Shown here: piece after piece, positions 47,503 through 57,361 of the stretch | Position numbering within the stretch: position 1 is the first letter of the stretch | Layout of the letters: every line of letters begins with the position of its first letter | From: an uncultured Eubacteriales bacterium | GTDB lineage: Bacteria > Acidobacteriota > Aminicenantia > Aminicenantales > Aminicenantaceae | Assembly: GCA_964514305.1 (NCBI GenBank) | Contig: CAZEQD010000003.1 | Location: 16,449 to 80,448 of the forward strand | DNA: 64,000 bases | Direction: 5' to 3' | Position numbers and translations under genes: made by a program | The notes under the pieces: model-generated | Told to the model about the DNA's origin: nothing | The model's input: only the letters and a program-made list of their open reading frames with translations | Database searches by the model: none

Positions 47503-48801
47503 TCAGTCTAAGAGGTTTCTTTCCTTAGCTTCTTTTATCAGGTCCGGCCTAAATTTAGGGTGAGCAATACTGATCAGAGCTTTTGTTCTTTCCTGGAGGT
47601 TTTTTCCATGAAGGTAAGCTACCCCATACTCAGTGACTACATACTTAACATCGGCCCGGGTAGTAACCACCCCGGCCCCTTTTTTCAGAAAGGGAACGAT
47701 GCGTGATATTTCACCATTTTTAGCCGTAGAAGGAAGAGCAATAATTGGTTTACCTCCCTTGGATTGAGCTGCGCCCCGAATGAAATCGACCTGTCCCCCA
47801 AACCCGCTGTAAATGTAAGTACCAATAGAGTCCGAACAAACCTGACCAGTTATATCAACCTCAATAGCTGAATTGATGGCTACCATATTATCATTGCGAG
47901 AGACATTGAAAGGATGGTTAGTGTAATCTACAGGATGTCCTTCAAAGATAGGATTATTATCAGCAAATTCATAGAGCCTATCGGAGCCTAAAATAAAAGT
48001 CAAAATTACCTTATAAGGATGAAAGGTTTTTTTGGCTCCAGTAATGGTTCCCTCTTCAATGGCTTCCATGACTCCATCGGAGACCATCTCGGTGTGGATT
48101 CCTAAATCCCGACGACCCTTCAAAGCAGAGAGAACAGCATCCGGTATTCCCCCAATGCCTAACTGCAAGGTTGAGCCATCCTCGATTAAATCAGCAATAA
48201 AGTTTCCTATCTTTCTTTCTACTTCACTAAAAGGTTTTTTCTCAAGCTGAGGTAAAGGTTCAGAAACTTCAACAATTTTATGGACTCTCGACACATGAAT
48301 AAAAGAATCTCCCAGAATACGCGGCATCTTTTCATTTACCTGAGCGATGACAATTTTGGCTGTTTCAGCAGCAGCTTTGGAAGCTAAGACTTCGGCTCCA
48401 AAGCTCATAAACCCATGTTCATCAGGAGGAGATAGATGGACCATGGCTACATCTATGGGCATCTGACCAGAATAGAATAAATTTGGTATTTGATGGAGGA
48501 AAATAGGCACATAGCCAGCTCTTCCTTCATTGATGGCTTTACGGTCAGCCGGGCCGACAAAAAGAGAATTATGGCGGAAATGGCCTTCCATTTCAGGCTT
48601 AGAAAGAGGATCTTCGCCCATTAAAAGAACGTGAACCAGCTCTACCCCTTCCAGTTCATCCTTCCTCGAGGCTAAGGCCTTTAATAATACATAAGGAGTA
48701 GCAGCATTGCCGCTGATATAAACTCGGCTACGGCTTTTAATTTCAGCTACCGCTTCTTCAGCTGAGACCAACTTTTTTTTGTAATCATCAACACATGACA
48801 T
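47503..48801 (-). CDS. Acetyl-CoA hydrolase/transferase (4-hydroxybutyrate CoA-transferase-like)
   Basis: TLQLGIGGIPDAV, LGIHTEM (catalytic Glu), INSAIEVD.TGQV, SGFGGQVDF, ADVKYVVTEYG. Confidence 0.92.
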   Translation of the reverse strand: MSCVDDYKKKLVSAEEAVAEIKSRSRVYISGNAATPYVLLKALASRKDELEGVELVHVLLMGEDPLSKPEMEGHFRHNSLFVGPADRKAINEGRAGYVPIFLHQIPNLFYSGQMPIDVAMVHLSPPDEHGFMSFGAEVLASKAAAETAKIVIAQVNEKMPRILGDSFIHVSRVHKIVEVSEPLPQLEKKPFSEVERKIGNFIADLIEDGSTLQLGIGGIPDAVLSALKGRRDLGIHTEMVSDGVMEAIEEGTITGAKKTFHPYKVILTFILGSDRLYEFADNNPIFEGHPVDYTNHPFNVSRNDNMVAINSAIEVDITGQVCSDSIGTYIYSGFGGQVDFIRGAAQSKGGKPIIALPSTAKNGEISRIVPFLKKGAGVVTTRADVKYVVTEYGVAYLHGKNLQERTKALISIAHPKFRPDLIKEAKERNLLD

Positions 48802-48854: not shown

Positions 48855-50381
<1,527 letters not shown>

Positions 50382-50395
50382 TCATAGCTTAGAGC

Positions 50396-51229
50396 TTAAG
50401 AAAAATTTTTCTTCTCCCAAAAAGATAAGGATTGAATTTCATCGTCAAAATAGGTCTTCCTTCGGGCAAAAAGCTCTTCCCAATTGACCAGATGTCCATC
50501 AAATTCGGGCCCATCAACACAGGCAAATTTTGTCTTGCCTCCAACTGTTACCCGGCAAGCTCCGCACATCCCAGTGCCGTCAACCATAATAGGATTGAGA
50601 CTGACCATGGTTTTTACGCCCAGGGGCCGGGTGGCCTCAGCACAGGTATACATCAGATAAGTACAACCGATAGAGATCACCCGATCTATCCTGGCCTTCC
50701 TCTTCAGGATATCCTTGAGGACGGCAGGAACATAATCTTTACAATTATAATAATTGTCCCTTGAAGAAACATAAAATTCATCGCTAATTTCTTTAAACCT
50801 TTCCTCCCAATAGAGAAGATAACTGGCTTTTATATCCAAAAGAGTAATAATTTTATTTTTTGCTTTCTTGAGAGCACGAGCAATAGGATATATAGCTCCA
50901 ATCCCGTAACACCCACCAGCACAAATCACAGTGCCGAATTTAGCTATTTCAGACGGTTTGCCCAAAGGACCGACAAAAACCGGAACTTCATCTCCTTCTT
51001 TGAGCAAAGAAAGTTTGTGAGTAGAAGTTCCTACAACCAGAAAAACAGCTGTAATAGAGCCTCTCTCGCTATCCCAATCGGCAATGGTTAAAGGGATTCT
51101 CTCGCCTAATTCATCAGGCATAATAATGACAAATTGGCCCGGCTTACATTTTTTAGCAATTTCAGGCGCCTCGACCTCAATTAAGTGAATATTGGGGACC
51201 AAACGCTCTCTTTTTAAGACTTTAGCCAT
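50396..51229 (-). CDS. nfnA: NfnA / SudB-like FAD-[2Fe-2S] subunit with altered NAD-binding motifs
   Basis: PGQFVI, ERIPLTIAD, GPLGKP, DGTGMCGACRV, CVDGPEF. Start placed at ATG 51229 (TAATG coupling with the upstream gene). Confidence 0.82.
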   Translation of the reverse strand: MAKVLKRERLVPNIHLIEVEAPEIAKKCKPGQFVIIMPDELGERIPLTIADWDSERGSITAVFLVVGTSTHKLSLLKEGDEVPVFVGPLGKPSEIAKFGTVICAGGCYGIGAIYPIARALKKAKNKIITLLDIKASYLLYWEERFKEISDEFYVSSRDNYYNCKDYVPAVLKDILKRKARIDRVISIGCTYLMYTCAEATRPLGVKTMVSLNPIMVDGTGMCGACRVTVGGKTKFACVDGPEFDGHLVNWEELFARRKTYFDDEIQSLSFWEKKNFS

Positions 51230-53787
51230 TATTTTCCTCTTATAATTTTGACAGCTATGGGGCCTAAACAAAGCTGATCTTTTCCCGAAGAAAACAAAGC
51301 TAGAGAGGAATACTCTGAATCTTGTTCAGGTAAAAAACTTGCCCTTAAAATCCCTTGAGGCAGGGCCTCGGAAATTTTAGTAATTCCCTTAAACTGGCCG
51401 CTGGAGGATTTGACAATTATAATCTCCCCCTCTCTTAAATTCAATTGCTGGGCATCTTGAGGAGAGATCTCAACCCATCTTGAGTCTCTAATCCTGCTTA
51501 AACCTTTCACTTCCTGACTGAGAATAAGATTGCGGTAATGATCTGAATTATATCTGAGAAGAAGAAGATAAGGGTACTTTTTTCCTAATTTTGCTTTTGA
51601 GGGAAGAGTATCTGTCAGCATAAATTTATTCTGGTCTTTGCTTGCCTGGGAAGAAATAAAAACATCCTTTCTTTTGGCTAGCTGAGAGTAAGAAGCTTTA
51701 GCCAAAGCTGGAATTGACTGCTGTATTTCTTTCATGATCGAAGAAGCTCTTTTATAGCCAAAATCTTTACTTCCCATTTTTTGAGCAATTTTAGATATTA
51801 TCCACCAATCTGGTTGAGCCTCTCCTAAAGTATTAATAACTTTGTTCAATTTCTGAATTCTGCCTTCTGTGTTGACCAAGGTCCCCTCTATTTCTAAAAA
51901 AGTGGCCGCAGGGAGGAGGGCATCAGCCTGGCTGGCTTTTTCACTTAAAAACGAATCCTGAATTACTAGAAACTCAGGCCTCCTCTTAAAGTGAGGGATA
52001 CCCCCTACTGCGTATATGGCTTTTATTTTAGAATCAGACAATTGAGTAAAAATCGTTTGCTCGTCAGCAAAAGAAGAAGAAAAATGATTCTCAATTTCCA
52101 TCATTCCCCGTTGATCACAATCCAAACTCAAAGGAATAAGTCTGCCACCAGTTAACAGAGTTAAGTTCCAGAGAGCTTCAAGGCTCTGAGACCCGCCAGC
52201 ACCCAGGGACAAGCCTGGGCCAAAAATAAAGAGCGGAGAATCTTCATGAAGAAGGTGAGCCGTTTCTTTCAGAGTCTCTTCCCTTAGGCCTACAATCTCC
52301 TTGACCCGAGCAACCTCAAATTTGTCCAGGAAATTTCGGAAAGAATCAAAGTTTTTAATCTCGGATAGTGATTTGAGATGGACCTCTTCTAAGAAATATT
52401 TGGAAATAAAGCTAAGGAGATAGAATTCCGAACCGGGCTTCAGCTTAAGGAAAATTGAAGAGAAACGACTCCAAAAAAACTCTACAGGCGAAGCTATAAC
52501 AAGTTTGGCTCCTTTCTTAACAGCTTTGAGAATTGCCAGCCAGATTATAGGATAAGAAGTGACTATATCTTCATTAATTATAAATATTAATTTAGCTTTA
52601 GAAATTGCTTCTAAGCTGAAATTATAATCTCCAGCCGGCCCATTCTTCTCGATTATCTTTTTATAAAGTTCTAAAGGAGATTGAATCCTTACCCTCATCA
52701 TATTTCTAGTTTTTAAAACATTATGAGCGAATTTATATAAAAGATAGCCATCTTCAAGAGTTATTTCTGAGGAAGGAATAACTCCAATTTCATCACCTTT
52801 GTAAGCTCTTAACTTTTTAGCTACAAAATCCAAAGCTTCATCCCAGCTGACTTCTTCCAATTTTTTCTTCTTCCTAATCAAAGGCTTTAAAATCCTTTTA
52901 GGGCTATAGGCTAACTCCCTAAGAGTAAAGCGGCCTTTGACGCAGGCCTGCCCATGATTAACCTTTCCTTCGGCCAAAGGTTTTGAGTTCAATATCCTGC
53001 CTTTTATCAAATCTACTTTCATTTCACAGCCCAACGGACAAAGGGAACAGATAGTTGTAACTGACTCATCAGGCAGAAGTTCATATTTAATAGCTCTTTC
53101 TGTTAAGGCTCCAGTAGGGCAGATATCAACACAGGCCCCACAAAATTGGCAACCCGATTCTAAAAGTGGTCGGTCGAGAACCGTTCCAACCACTGCCCTT
53201 GAGCCTCTAAAAACAAAGGAAAGAGCCGAAGCCCCCCTCAGTTCTTGACAGACTCTGACACATCTTCCGCACAAGATACAAAGATTATAATTGCGGTCAA
53301 AAAAAGGATCCTCTCTCTTGACTTCATAGTTACGGTAAAGGGCTGGAAAATTTACTCGATTGATTTTCAAAGCTTGAACTACATCCTGAAGGTCACAGCG
53401 GCCGTTATTAGGGCAAAAAACACAACCTGTAACCTCACTCACTTTTCGGATAGTGGACTTATATTCGTCGCAATTCTCTTTTTCGCTGCAGATTAGGCAA
53501 GCATGGGGATGCTCGGAAAGAATAAGTTCTAAAATTTGTCTTCTAATCTTCTGCAGTTGAGGAGTATCTGTTTTTATTTCCATGCCCTCTTCAACATAGG
53601 TTCCGCAGGAAGGAGGGAATCCTCTTCTTCCCTTAATCTCCACAATGCACAGGCGGCAGCCGCTGAAAGGCTCCAAGTAAGGGTGATCACAGAGGGAAGG
53701 GATAAAAATATTGTTCTCTCTGGCTACCTCGAGGATAGTCTTTTTACCTTCTACTTCTAAGAGCTGGCCATTAATGATAATCTTCAT
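51229..53787 (-). CDS. HydA/NuoG-like multi-Fe-S subunit with molybdopterin-oxidoreductase fold, no catalytic Cys/Sec and no H-cluster
   Basis: [2Fe-2S] C..P.L....GCRLC..SC; HPHAC..C; 2x[4Fe-4S] CILCGRCVRVC and CQFCGACVDIC; CSLCPLGC...CVKG. The FdhF ligand segment reads NMMRVRIQS instead of N.D.CAR(C/U)H. Confidence 0.8.
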   Translation of the reverse strand: MKIIINGQLLEVEGKKTILEVARENNIFIPSLCDHPYLEPFSGCRLCIVEIKGRRGFPPSCGTYVEEGMEIKTDTPQLQKIRRQILELILSEHPHACLICSEKENCDEYKSTIRKVSEVTGCVFCPNNGRCDLQDVVQALKINRVNFPALYRNYEVKREDPFFDRNYNLCILCGRCVRVCQELRGASALSFVFRGSRAVVGTVLDRPLLESGCQFCGACVDICPTGALTERAIKYELLPDESVTTICSLCPLGCEMKVDLIKGRILNSKPLAEGKVNHGQACVKGRFTLRELAYSPKRILKPLIRKKKKLEEVSWDEALDFVAKKLRAYKGDEIGVIPSSEITLEDGYLLYKFAHNVLKTRNMMRVRIQSPLELYKKIIEKNGPAGDYNFSLEAISKAKLIFIINEDIVTSYPIIWLAILKAVKKGAKLVIASPVEFFWSRFSSIFLKLKPGSEFYLLSFISKYFLEEVHLKSLSEIKNFDSFRNFLDKFEVARVKEIVGLREETLKETAHLLHEDSPLFIFGPGLSLGAGGSQSLEALWNLTLLTGGRLIPLSLDCDQRGMMEIENHFSSSFADEQTIFTQLSDSKIKAIYAVGGIPHFKRRPEFLVIQDSFLSEKASQADALLPAATFLEIEGTLVNTEGRIQKLNKVINTLGEAQPDWWIISKIAQKMGSKDFGYKRASSIMKEIQQSIPALAKASYSQLAKRKDVFISSQASKDQNKFMLTDTLPSKAKLGKKYPYLLLLRYNSDHYRNLILSQEVKGLSRIRDSRWVEISPQDAQQLNLREGEIIIVKSSSGQFKGITKISEALPQGILRASFLPEQDSEYSSLALFSSGKDQLCLGPIAVKIIRGK

Positions 53788-53788
53788 T

Positions 53789-55714
53789 TTACCGCTTTTT
53801 TCTCAAAGATTTTTTAAGTAGCCTATCTCTTTTCTGGCCTGTATATTTAGAAACAGCTTTTACTTTAGGGGGACAAACATCAAGACAGGCCCCGCATTTT
53901 ATACATAAATTCTGATCGATAACATGAACTTTTTTCCTTTCTCCAGAAATGGCTCCAGCTGGACAGCTCTTCAAACAAAGAAGGCAGCCGACACATTTTT
54001 CTGGTTCAATATAATAAACAATCAAATCTTTGCAGACTAAAGCTGGGCAGGCTTTATTTTTAATATGAGCTTCATATTCCTGGCGGAAATAACGAAGCGT
54101 GGTTAAAACGGGATTTGGGGCGGTTTGGCCTAAGCCACAAAGGGAAGCAGCCTTCACTGTTTTAGCCAGATTTTCGAGTATCTCCAGGTCCCCCTCTTCC
54201 CCTTTACCCTGAGTAATTCTGGTTAAAATCTCTACCATCTGTCTGGTTCCCACCCGACAGGGAACACACTTACCGCAGGATTCTTCTTGAGTAAAATTTA
54301 GAAAATAACGAGCTACATCAACCATACAGGTTTCTTCATCCATGACAATCATTCCCCCAGAACCCATGATTGAGCCAGCCTTAGTTAAAGTATCATAATC
54401 TACAGTCAAATTAAGCATTGAGGCAGGAATACATCCTCCAGAAGGACCTCCTGTCTGGACAGCTTTAAATTTCTTATCATCCTTTATCCCGCCTCCTATA
54501 TCATAAATAATTTCTTTAAGAGTAATGCCCATCGGAACTTCAACTAAACCTGTATTTCTTATTTTACCCACTAAAGAAAAAATCTTGGTTCCCTTGCTCA
54601 TTTGGCTCCCAATCTGAGAATACCATTCAGCACCCTTATTAATGATAAGAGGCACGTTAGCCCAGGTCTCAACATTGTTGATATTGGTGGGCTTACCCCA
54701 TAAACCTGATTGAGCTGGAAAAGGAGGTCTCTGCCGGGGAAAAGCCCGACGTCCTTCAATTGAAGCTATCAAAGAAGTTTCTTCTCCGGAGACAAAAGCC
54801 CCGGCTCCCTCGACCACATGAATATCAAAGCTAAATTCCGATCCCATTATTGACTTTCCCAAAAGTCCAGCTGCCTTTGCCTGTTCCAGAGCTATTGTTA
54901 CATGTTTAACAGCGAGGGGATATTCCATCCTGACATAAATGTAGCCTTCATTGGCTCCAATGGCATAAGCTCCGATAATCATACCTTCAATTACACTGTG
55001 AGGGTTTCCTTCCAGAAGACTGCGGTCCATATAAGCTCCAGGGTCTCCCTCGTCAGCATTACAAATTATGTATTTCACCTCTGCCTTAGAGGCCCGACAG
55101 ATCTCCCATTTGCGTCCGGTTGGAAAACCAGCGCCACCCCGCCCTCTTAAACCTGAGGCCTTAACTTCTTCAATTACCTCTTCGGAAGTCATATTAAAAA
55201 GAATTTTGGCTAAGGCCTGGTAACCATCAATAACAATATAATCTTCGATATTGGTAGGGTCGACTCTCAAGTTATTTTCTGTCAAGAGTCTTATTTGTTT
55301 TTGATAAAAAGGTATATCTTTCTGCTTGATCACCTTCTTTTTGGTTTTGGTATCTTCGTAGACAAGAGAAGGAATAATCTTATCTTTTAAAATCGTCTCC
55401 TCAATTATTTGAGGGACATCATCAGCTTTAAGGTTCTTATAAAAAATTTCACCTGGATAAATAATTATATTAGGTTCCAGCTGACAAAAACCATGGCAAC
55501 CTGTTATCTTGAGACCGACCCTCCCTCCAAGGCCTCTTTTCTTAATCTCAGCTTTTAAAGCCTCAATCACTGGTAAAGATCCGCTGGCTTGGCCGCAGGT
55601 CCCAGAGGAGACGACAATTGTTTTCTCATAGATAGGACGAGAGGCAATAATCTTCTTCTTCCATTCTAAAAGTTTTTCAGGTTGAGTTATCTTTTCTTTA
55701 AACATGTCTGTCAT
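53789..55714 (-). CDS. nuoF: HydB/NuoF-like NADH-binding FMN subunit, long (bifurcating-type) form
   Basis: SGLRGRGGAGFPTG, CNADEGDPGAYMDR, GEETS, ESCGKCVPCR, LCGLG; N-terminal thioredoxin-like [2Fe-2S] domain and C-terminal 2x[4Fe-4S]. Confidence 0.9.
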   Translation of the reverse strand: MTDMFKEKITQPEKLLEWKKKIIASRPIYEKTIVVSSGTCGQASGSLPVIEALKAEIKKRGLGGRVGLKITGCHGFCQLEPNIIIYPGEIFYKNLKADDVPQIIEETILKDKIIPSLVYEDTKTKKKVIKQKDIPFYQKQIRLLTENNLRVDPTNIEDYIVIDGYQALAKILFNMTSEEVIEEVKASGLRGRGGAGFPTGRKWEICRASKAEVKYIICNADEGDPGAYMDRSLLEGNPHSVIEGMIIGAYAIGANEGYIYVRMEYPLAVKHVTIALEQAKAAGLLGKSIMGSEFSFDIHVVEGAGAFVSGEETSLIASIEGRRAFPRQRPPFPAQSGLWGKPTNINNVETWANVPLIINKGAEWYSQIGSQMSKGTKIFSLVGKIRNTGLVEVPMGITLKEIIYDIGGGIKDDKKFKAVQTGGPSGGCIPASMLNLTVDYDTLTKAGSIMGSGGMIVMDEETCMVDVARYFLNFTQEESCGKCVPCRVGTRQMVEILTRITQGKGEEGDLEILENLAKTVKAASLCGLGQTAPNPVLTTLRYFRQEYEAHIKNKACPALVCKDLIVYYIEPEKCVGCLLCLKSCPAGAISGERKKVHVIDQNLCIKCGACLDVCPPKVKAVSKYTGQKRDRLLKKSLRKKR

Positions 55715-56152
55715 TTATTTGTACTCGCTTAGTATAGAATCCACTTTTTTCAAGGTAGTATAGGAATAATATTTACCATCAACTACTACTACCGGACCAA
55801 TAGCACAGCATCCTAAACAGTTAACTGTTTCCAGGGTAAATTTTCGATCGGGGGTTGTTTGGCCAACCTTGATATTTAGTTTGCGAGCAAAATCATCAGC
55901 AATCTTATCTCCGCCTCTAACATGACAAGCAGTGCCCAGACAGACTGTAATTAAATGTTGGCCTCTTGGTTCTAAAGTAAAAGCCTTGTAAAAAGTCAGA
56001 ACTCCAAATATCTCACTTTCTGAAATCTTTAAATAGTCGGATATCCTGGAGATAGCTTCAGCTGGAATATAACCATATTTATGCTGGACCTGATGAAGAA
56101 TATGAATAAGATTTCTCTGTTGGGGCTTAAACTGTCTTAATATTTGCTCCAT
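55715..56152 (-). CDS. nuoE: HydC/NuoE-like [2Fe-2S] subunit
   Basis: TFYKAF, VCLGTACHVRG, VNCLGCCAIGP. Confidence 0.92.
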   Translation of the reverse strand: MEQILRQFKPQQRNLIHILHQVQHKYGYIPAEAISRISDYLKISESEIFGVLTFYKAFTLEPRGQHLITVCLGTACHVRGGDKIADDFARKLNIKVGQTTPDRKFTLETVNCLGCCAIGPVVVVDGKYYSYTTLKKVDSILSEYK

Positions 56153-56168: not shown

Positions 56169-57281
56169 TCAAACTAAAGAAAATTCTTGATATTTTAATC
56201 CAAACCTTTCAGCAAAAGTTTTTCTGACAATATTCCCATGATAAACATACAATCCTCTGACCAAGGTTCTATCACCTTTTAAGGTCTCATCCAACCCCTT
56301 TTCTCCTATCTTCAGCAAATAAGGAGTCACCATATTAGACAAAACTTTGGTTGAAGTCCGGCTTACAGCCGAGGTAATATTGGGAACACAATAATGAATA
56401 ACGCCTTCTTCAACAAAAGTGGGCTGTTCAAGAGTAGTTAAACGACTAGTCTCAATACACCCCCCCTGATCTATGGCCAGATCAATAATTATTGATCCTT
56501 TTTTCATGCTCTTGACCATGTCCTTGGTGATCATGATTGGCGCTCTCTCTCCAGGCCTGAGAACAGCTCCAACTAGAATGTCTGCAATTTTGACCATACG
56601 CGCTAAGTTGTAATTGCTGGCAATAAGAGTTATCAGACGGCCAGAAGTCATCTCCTCCAGCTCTCTCAGCCTTTCCATATCCCGACCTAAAGCAATGGTA
56701 TGAGCTCCAGCCCCAAGCAAGGCCTTAATAGCACTGCGGGCTAAGACCCCACTACCGACAATGATTGCTGTCGCTGGAGGCACAGTTACAACTCCTCCCA
56801 TTATCACCCCTTTTCCACCTTGACTTGTCTGAAGATAATGGCCGGAAATAAAAAGGCACATCTGTCCAGCAATCTCGCTTAAACTCTCAATAAAAGGCAG
56901 GACACCATTATCCCTCTGAATTATTTCATAGCCAATAATGGTTACTTCTTTCCTAAGAAGTTCTTCGATTAAGCTTTTTCGAGCAACAGCCAAATGCTGA
57001 AAGCCAAATAAAATCTGGCCTTTTTTTATCAGGCCACATTCTTCCTTACTAAGAGGAGAAATATTAAGGACAACATCTGAACGACCAAAAACTTCTTCTT
57101 TAGTAAAAACGATTTTAGCTCCAAGAGAAGCATATTCTTCATTAGAATAGCCTGATTTCAGACCTGCTCCAGCTTGAATATAGACAGTATGTCCTTTTTC
57201 AACCAAAAGAGAGACACTGCTTGGAGTTAAACTAACCCGGTTTTCTATTTTTCCACTTTCATTGATAACACCCACACTCAT
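56169..57281 (-). CDS. ald: Divergent alanine dehydrogenase/PntA-fold protein
   Basis: ENRVSLTP, GAG..SG, HLA, DLAIDQGGC.ET and GVIHYCVPN are present, but KVKEP reads NISPL, GGGVVG reads GSGVLA and IDLN reads LGRD. The symbol denotes homology; the function is doubtful. Confidence 0.65.
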   Translation of the reverse strand: MSVGVINESGKIENRVSLTPSSVSLLVEKGHTVYIQAGAGLKSGYSNEEYASLGAKIVFTKEEVFGRSDVVLNISPLSKEECGLIKKGQILFGFQHLAVARKSLIEELLRKEVTIIGYEIIQRDNGVLPFIESLSEIAGQMCLFISGHYLQTSQGGKGVIMGGVVTVPPATAIIVGSGVLARSAIKALLGAGAHTIALGRDMERLRELEEMTSGRLITLIASNYNLARMVKIADILVGAVLRPGERAPIMITKDMVKSMKKGSIIIDLAIDQGGCIETSRLTTLEQPTFVEEGVIHYCVPNITSAVSRTSTKVLSNMVTPYLLKIGEKGLDETLKGDRTLVRGLYVYHGNIVRKTFAERFGLKYQEFSLV

Positions 57282-57361
57282 ATCTTCCTCCTTTCCTTAA
57301 AGATGGATTATATTAACAAAAAATTTTTTCAATGACAACAAAAAGCAACCTTAATCAAACT

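Follow-up and report, generated by a model that had tools for sequence, protein, structure and literature searches.

The 64,000-nucleotide (nt) stretch of DNA analysed here (the window; contig CAZEQD010000003.1 of assembly GCA_964514305.1, an uncultured bacterium of the Aminicenantales) carries at 56169..57281, on the minus strand, a gene with an ATG start for a protein of 370 amino acids (aa). Its Pfam domains, motifs and position in phylogenetic trees place it among the alanine dehydrogenases (Ald, or AlaDH) and their relatives; the protein itself is not an ordinary Ald. Judged by tree, contact residues and gene context, it belongs to the family of ADLP, the alanine-dehydrogenase-like protein of Thermus thermophilus HB27, and it is probably a regulatory pseudoenzyme of that type whose dinucleotide site has likely shifted to NADP(H). 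The ADLP kind is known from one preprint (bioRxiv 10.1101/2025.10.31.685773, Nishiyama laboratory, 2025); new here are the altered cofactor site and a gene set of the Bfu/Nfn type that interrupts the operon. Close homologues are named 'alanine dehydrogenase' in the databases, a label that would wrongly credit these uncultured bacteria of sediments and vents with a step of alanine fermentation. As an ADLP, the protein would be a control point that ties acyl-CoA and short-chain fatty acid flux to the redox state of a nicotinamide pool.

The AlaDh_PNT_N and AlaDh_PNT_C domains span the full length of the protein, and an AlphaFold2 model (mean predicted local distance difference test score, pLDDT, of 93) has a complete AlaDH fold, with a template-modelling (TM) score of 0.94 to the Ald of Mycobacterium tuberculosis (2voe). 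The library used for the structure search lacked ADLP entries and returned canonical Alds and PntA only, so the fold cannot separate ADLP from Ald. Residue states were compared with those of the solved Alds 2eez, 8hye and 8hyh and of 150 cluster representatives (50% identity). The Ald motif KVKEP has become NISPL, in which the first lysine is also gone (Asn73). SEVAGR reads SEIAGQ and TTH reads TTL, the dinucleotide fingerprint GxGxxG has become GSGVLA (residues 176-181), and the Asp at the end of strand beta-2 is replaced by Gly199, followed by Arg200 (LGRD). Retained are the equivalents of Arg15 and His96 (within FQHLA), the Asp of DQGG (D271, followed by Q272) and Asn301, the counterpart of Ald Asn300. 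A preliminary description made from the letters alone had read the lost catalytic Lys, GSGVLA, the Gly-Arg pair, SEIAGQ, TTL and the four retained equivalents (Arg15, His96, Asp270, Asn300) in the same way, and all of them were seen in the alignments. Its placement of a Ser at Lys75 agrees with MAFFT run with intermediates and with the family profile (Ser75), pairwise phmmer giving Ile74; under either alignment the catalytic position holds no Lys.

Judging from 120 homologues of 74-100% identity, these states are not chance or sequencing noise. N73, S75, A181 and Q140 show little or no variation; G176, S177, G178, A181, D271 and Q272 each occur in at least 118 of the 120, G199 in 113 and R200 in 96, and most homologues have an extra His95 beside His96. 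Because the pocket residues are near-invariant and identity across the order (71-75%) is above that of the neighbouring NuoE (51-68%), the protein is under purifying selection.

Compared with L-alanine dehydrogenases (Rv2780, B. subtilis Ald, 2eez), the window protein is alike in fold (TM 0.94), domain order and length and has R15, H96 and D271 in place of Arg15, His96 and Asp270, but it lacks both Lys75 and the GxGxxG fingerprint with its NAD-selecting Asp198. Mutation of Lys75 to Ala inactivates AlaDH (PMC10401832). The score of the window protein against TIGR00518 (alaDH, EC 1.4.1.1) is 352 bits, below the curated equivalog cut-off of 391.85, and in a tree it does not group with 30 Ald representatives that carry KVKEP (Shimodaira-Hasegawa approximate likelihood-ratio test, SH-aLRT, 99). 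It stands in a separate clade and in another gene context, and the earlier conclusion that this is no ordinary Ald was borne out.

In T. thermophilus, ADLP (TT_C1082) co-purifies with the class I CoA-transferase encoded beside it (TtCoAT, TT_C1083). It lacks the catalytic Lys (Ala77), is inactive on all 20 proteinogenic amino acids and on pyruvate, and binds NAD+ and NADH with dissociation constants of 9.1 uM and 0.22 uM. NAD+-bound ADLP partly inhibits and locks the CoA-transferase, and NADH relieves this. By cryo-electron microscopy, NAD+ opens the ADLP cleft and loop 120-126 of the CoA-transferase inserts, in complexes of one ADLP hexamer with one to three CoA-transferase dimers; Glu2, Arg69 and Arg88 of ADLP touch Asp123-His125 of the CoA-transferase. 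The NAD(H)-binding residues are Ser136, Val179-Leu180, Asp199, Arg200, Asp270 and Gln271, of which Asp199 binds the adenine-ribose hydroxyls and Arg200 stacks on the adenine. Ser is listed among the replacements of the catalytic Lys in the ADLP clade, whose distribution was called limited (bioRxiv 10.1101/2025.10.31.685773). PDB entries 9wns and 9wnu each hold an 'alanine dehydrogenase' chain and a '4-hydroxybutyrate CoA transferase' chain, and the sequence of 9vae shows LKVARP and Asp199-Arg200, matching the published description of ADLP.

The second Lys of KVKEP is absent from many of the 150 best cluster representatives, and in some His96 is gone as well. In a first tree of 105 proteins, 66 lysine-less proteins fall on one side, and the clade of 12 that includes the window protein (support 100) is the only one that also lacks the Asp. 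A second tree of 106 proteins sets the 30 KVKEP Alds, a group chosen by a motif that makes up 5 of 374 alignment columns, apart from the CoA-transferase-linked and Aminicenantes proteins (SH-aLRT 99); the window clade (support 100) is nested among 59 proteins encoded next to a CoA-transferase. This tree was built without Thermus ADLP and includes its nearest representatives, those of the P0141 type (best PDB hit 9vae). R67, the counterpart of ADLP Arg69, occurs without exception in the 76 proteins of the ADLP side, compared with Arg in only 5 of the 30 canonical Alds, and K86 takes the place of ADLP Arg88. At position 75 the ADLP-side proteins differ widely, with S, G, A, Q, T and further residues.

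The gene of the window protein is the first of an apparent operon whose last gene (47503..48801, minus strand; PF02550, PF13336) encodes a class I CoA-transferase of 432 aa. This protein matches TtCoAT (PDB 9vag) with 639 bits, and its docking loop, SPPDEHG at residues 124-130, is identical. A co-fold of the ADLP-like protein with this CoA-transferase gave a median ipSAE of 0.55, the best of three controls reaching 0.00, and lends the pairing weak support. The runs had at least 87% of contacts in common, with a partner pLDDT of at least 91. Of 80 solved complexes 58 reach the mark, as do 2 of 110 mismatched pairs; just 7 of the 80 reach it with an ipSAE of 0.60 or less, as do both of the passing mismatches. 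These counts hold only roughly for this pair, for which custom alignments were used.

The likeness to the Thermus pair covers an AlaDH fold whose catalytic Lys has given way to another residue (Ala77 in Thermus, Ser75 in the window), a pocket that retains Arg15, the His, the Asp-Gln pair and Arg200, the contact residue Arg69, and two co-directional genes in one apparent operon. Unlike Thermus ADLP, the window protein has Gly for Asp199 and GxGxxA for GxGxxG, so that recognition of NAD+ and NADH cannot be identical in the two. It has also lost Lys73, has Ser for Glu2 and is only about 40% identical to the Thermus protein (an estimate). Five redox genes lie between sensor and target genes in the window, and the hosts differ, Thermus being an aerobic thermophile and the window organism an anaerobic member of the sediment and vent Aminicenantes.

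In the explanation that we propose, ADLP would be a duplicate of alanine dehydrogenase that lost catalysis and retained the fold and the dinucleotide pocket, and the hexameric assembly was presumably retained as well. The protein would sense the redox state and bind and restrain a class I CoA-transferase (butyryl-CoA:acetate or 4-hydroxybutyrate type), its target being the one encoded at the 3' end of the operon. We infer both binding in the window organism and the direction of regulation. In the Aminicenantales the pocket has lost the Asp that reads the adenine ribose (Asp to Gly) and has exchanged GxGxxG for GxGxxA with Arg200 kept, and the sensor may now read NADP+/NADPH or both pools. Its gene lies directly before those for a putative Bfu-type (NuoEFG-like) and NfnAB-like NADH/NADPH/ferredoxin oxidoreductase. 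Since it heads the operon that ends in the CoA-transferase gene, the sensor, the machine that would set the NADPH pool and the regulated CoA-transferase would be made together.

The pocket change is specific to the window clade. All 12 Aminicenantales proteins have Gly at position 199 and Ala at position 181; the 64 others on the ADLP side invariably have Asp or Glu at 199, and a single one of them has Ala at 181. Arg200 is not new, as Thermus ADLP already has Asp199-Arg200, and only the Asp to Gly and Gly to Ala changes are derived. Loss of the selecting Asp moves genuine AlaDHs in the direction of NADP, examples being the engineered variants D198A of Shewanella and D196A/L197R of B. subtilis (listed in PMC5817062), which makes NADP(H) sensing a reasonable expectation. 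The NADP-type fingerprint claimed in the preliminary description does exist, is confined to this clade and belongs to the type that moves AlaDH towards NADP, except that its Arg is not new. Relatives outside the Aminicenantales, which the same description had taken as a possible counter-sign should they keep Lys75 and the Asp away from the redox cluster, are unlinked to that cluster and have retained the Asp; Lys75, however, is missing from them as well. The Aminicenantales form amounts to a natural experiment, in which the NAD-selecting Asp was lost and the gene moved in front of an NADPH-linked bifurcating complex.

The seven genes of the apparent operon lie closely packed on the minus strand. 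After the ADLP-like gene come those for a NuoE/HydC-like [2Fe-2S] subunit (55715..56152; PF01257, NCBIfam NuoE), a NuoF/HydB-like FMN subunit of the Bfu B type with an N-terminal 2Fe-2S and two C-terminal 4Fe-4S domains (53789..55714), a NuoG/FdhA-like Fe-S subunit with a molybdopterin-type domain (51229..53787; Pfam and NCBIfam), an NfnA/PyrK-like FAD/[2Fe-2S] subunit (50396..51271; NF004862 of NCBIfam, 365 bits), an NfnB/GltD-like NADPH-FAD subunit with two 4Fe-4S clusters (48855..50372; TIGR01316, 628 bits) and the CoA-transferase. Only 16 nt separate the ADLP-like gene from the NuoE-like gene. The gap of 80 nt on its 5' side contains a promoter-like site (TTGTCA-17 nt-TAATAT with TG; 57310..57338, minus strand) identified by consensus match only, in a region with 32 such sites where 21 +/- 4.5 are expected. 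No intergenic terminator-like site was found between the ADLP-like gene and the CoA-transferase gene. This spacing agrees with the earlier statement that the gene heads a redox operon. The cluster had been called HydABC-type, which does not hold for the A subunit, as this is NuoG/FdhA-like and not the hydrogenase HydA.

The five intervening genes resemble NfnABC/Stn/Nfn-Bfu enzymes and NfnAB (NfnSL) in encoding a NuoE/F-like bifurcating core, a NuoG-like Fe-S subunit and an NfnB-type NADPH-FAD module; the likeness concerns these neighbours and not the ADLP-like protein. No Nfn-type enzyme with an AlaDH-like subunit was found in PMC9304861, which makes no mention of alanine dehydrogenase, and a literature search combining AlaDH, NuoF and Bfu returned no match. 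A rival reading is that the protein serves the NuoEFG/NfnAB-like complex as a subunit that regulates it or docks NADP(H), besides or instead of controlling the CoA-transferase. The Gly199-type gene lies directly before a redox gene in 12 of 12 Aminicenantales genomes (NuoE in 10, NuoF and NfnB in one each), and the fingerprint change is confined to this clade. NfnB stays beside the ADLP gene even in two reduced operons that lack NuoE, NuoG and NfnA, namely ADLP-NuoF-NfnB-CoA-transferase (L049, genome G374) and ADLP-NfnB-CoA-transferase (L050, genome G277). Within the class, the NAD-type relatives lie apart from the cluster or, in G257, two genes (ResB and CcsA) upstream of it, and an ADLP-CoA-transferase pair of the Vicinamibacteria (L106) has NfnB/A-like genes nearby.

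However, the altered pocket and the relocation of the gene to the front of the redox operon coincide in a single evolutionary event, so the association has no independent replication. NfnB directly precedes the CoA-transferase in 5 of 5 Aminicenantia genomes checked. Two related genomes, G133 and G027, keep the full six-gene cluster (NuoEFG-NfnAB-CoA-transferase) without an ADLP gene at its head, so that no ADLP is needed in cis. The conserved residues are, moreover, those that contact the CoA-transferase. We consider it unlikely that the protein is a subunit of the redox complex. A combined form, in which an NADP+/NADPH sensor not only gates the CoA-transferase but is also docked on, or regulates, the Bfu/Nfn-type bifurcating complex, is similarly doubtful; if true, it would provide the first case of a bifurcating transhydrogenase under the control of a pseudoenzyme, and a natural one of a redox sensor that switches its cofactor pool. 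The earlier suggestion of a sensor or partner of the downstream complex fared well in its first half, a sensor being favoured over an enzyme, but the documented partner of ADLP is the CoA-transferase and not a redox complex.

Some side observations concern these loci. ResB- and CcsA-like genes come after the NAD-type ADLP gene in two Aminicenantia genomes (L046:10177-12851 and L047:6188-9158). Such neighbours of the ADLP-like gene were considered in G133 and G257; they belong to cytochrome c biogenesis and look unrelated. The NfnB match of G374 carries one in-frame TAG.

Several findings count against an ADLP-type regulator that has shifted to NADP(H). The experimental basis of the family is a single preprint on a single organism. 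The window protein matches the canonical Ald 2eez (321 bits) better than Thermus ADLP 9vae (256 bits), and because its best hit is a canonical Ald, ADLP membership rests on the tree, the gene context and the contact residues. One of the three named contact residues, Glu2, is Ser. In G133 and G027 an NAD-type ADLP gene lies on another contig, not adjacent to its presumed target, and in the window itself 7.4 kb and five redox genes separate the ADLP-like gene from the CoA-transferase gene. The NAD(H)-binding set of ADLP is retained in full except for Asp199 (Gly), with Ala as the third Gly of the fingerprint, and the retained His96, Arg15 and Asp271 leave residual or altered catalysis possible as far as the sequence goes. 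Within the clade, the NADP reading is weakened by variation of the pocket. Of the 12 species-level genomes, 5 have R and 5 have H at position 200, with Q and L in one each; Thr or Ser replaces the second fingerprint Gly (178) in 3; and S135G and Q272H are found together in 5, the same genomes that have His200. Such variation might reflect a different ligand or a pocket that has become looser.

The retained residues might instead belong to an enzyme that is still active, an NADP-dependent dehydrogenase acting on something other than alanine, in which the role of Lys75 has been taken over or become dispensable. Arg15, His96 (with the extra His95 in most), Asp271 and Asn301 are near-invariant, the full AlaDH fold is predicted at high confidence and the pocket is compatible with NADP. 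Thermus ADLP, however, has the same residues and is inactive on alanine, on pyruvate and on the 19 other proteinogenic amino acids, and the loss of AlaDH activity on mutation of Lys75 to Ala points the same way. Position 75 varies freely across the ADLP side, and the absence of His96 from several family members is unlike a selected substrate-binding site. A catalytic role of this kind, which the preliminary description had entertained, is improbable.

The pocket variation also raises the question of whether the dinucleotide site has decayed, leaving a protein that partners or scaffolds the CoA-transferase constitutively and without need of a ligand. Five positions that are near-invariant in Ald and ADLP change in the clade (G181A and D199G in 12 of 12, G178T/S in 3 of 12, S135G and Q272H in 5 of 12). 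Against this, the new states are conserved within subclades, as the counts for G176, S177, G178, A181, D271 and Q272 (at least 118 of 120) and for R200 (96 of 120) illustrate, which argues for retuning rather than decay. S135G, R200H and Q272H occur as a set in a single subclade of the Aminicenantales (L016, L018, L020, L021 and L022; families f3/f6), which looks like selected retuning more than like drift, and the linked changes suggest a second retuning of the ligand site. Decay of the pocket therefore seems a poor explanation, one to which we give little weight. A pairing in which an amino acid is converted by way of a 2-oxoacid to an acyl-CoA, or an aminoacyl-CoA dehydrogenase, was dropped given the solved ADLP-CoA-transferase complex and its biochemistry.

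The two-gene module reaches well beyond this order. When an alignment of the CoA-transferase was searched against one genome per species, 73 loci could be evaluated, and in 52 of them, from at least ten named phyla, an ADLP-like gene lies no more than 500 nt upstream of the CoA-transferase gene. The gap is mostly 40 nt or less and often a 4-nt overlap. The phyla include Acidobacteriota, Ignavibacteriota, Bacteroidota, Gemmatimonadota, Planctomycetota, Chloroflexota, Myxococcota and Actinomycetota. At 12 of 18 further Acidobacteriota loci an AlaDH-like gene is directly followed by that of a 432-aa CoA-transferase, the partner enzymes in other families of this phylum being 57-75% identical to the one in the window, and the pair was also found in Gemmatimonadota and on other unrelated contigs. 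All CoA-transferase-adjacent ADLP-like proteins of the scan have Asp or Glu at position 199. Intervening redox genes occur only in loci of the Aminicenantes type (L064 complete; L065, L067 and L069 truncated upstream). The module is therefore far more widespread than the preprint that defines it suggests. No claim made here depends on the unpublished genome G024, which was counted in an overall tally only. No ADLP-CoA-transferase fusion was found; the open frames of 800-900 aa seen in high-GC genomes are not CoA-transferase fusions. At L106:8878-13669, in a metagenome-assembled genome of the Vicinamibacteria, NfnB- and NfnA-like genes on the opposite strand come after an ADLP/CoA-transferase pair of the NAD type, which may be a second, independent neighbourhood of the module with Nfn.

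With the first domain of PntA the window protein has common Pfam domains, and like it the protein would bind a dinucleotide without a carbon substrate. Unlike PntA, it scores only 111-138 bits against NCBIfam PntA models with cut-offs of 383-444, and its own genome, 93% complete, gave no match to PntB (PF02233). In that genome it is the sole true member of the AlaDH/PNT family; a 437-aa open reading frame on contig C70 has the other, weak match to PF01262. For ten divergent AlaDH-like clusters the source names are all 'alanine dehydrogenase' or blank and hence uninformative.

DNA of the operon occurs in hydrothermal-vent and sediment metagenomes. Formate dehydrogenases carry a Cys/Sec-His ligand motif in their molybdopterin-type domain; no such motif was seen on inspection of the NuoG/FdhA-like subunit, which reads NMMRVRIQSP at that position. 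A lysine-less AlaDH-like group of about 400 aa with an N-terminal extension (L062, on a Bacteroidota-type contig; P0152, P0153 and P0161) is not encoded beside a CoA-transferase, and several of its members also lack His96. In the CoA-transferase of the window, E238 is invariant across 22 homologues. The residue that is acetylated in TtCoAT, Lys5, has been reported as conserved in Thermus only (bioRxiv 10.1101/2025.10.31.685773). Residues 8-10 of the window enzyme are Lys-Lys-Lys, compared with Arg4-Lys5-Lys6 in TtCoAT, so that the Thermus acetylation site aligns with a Lys.

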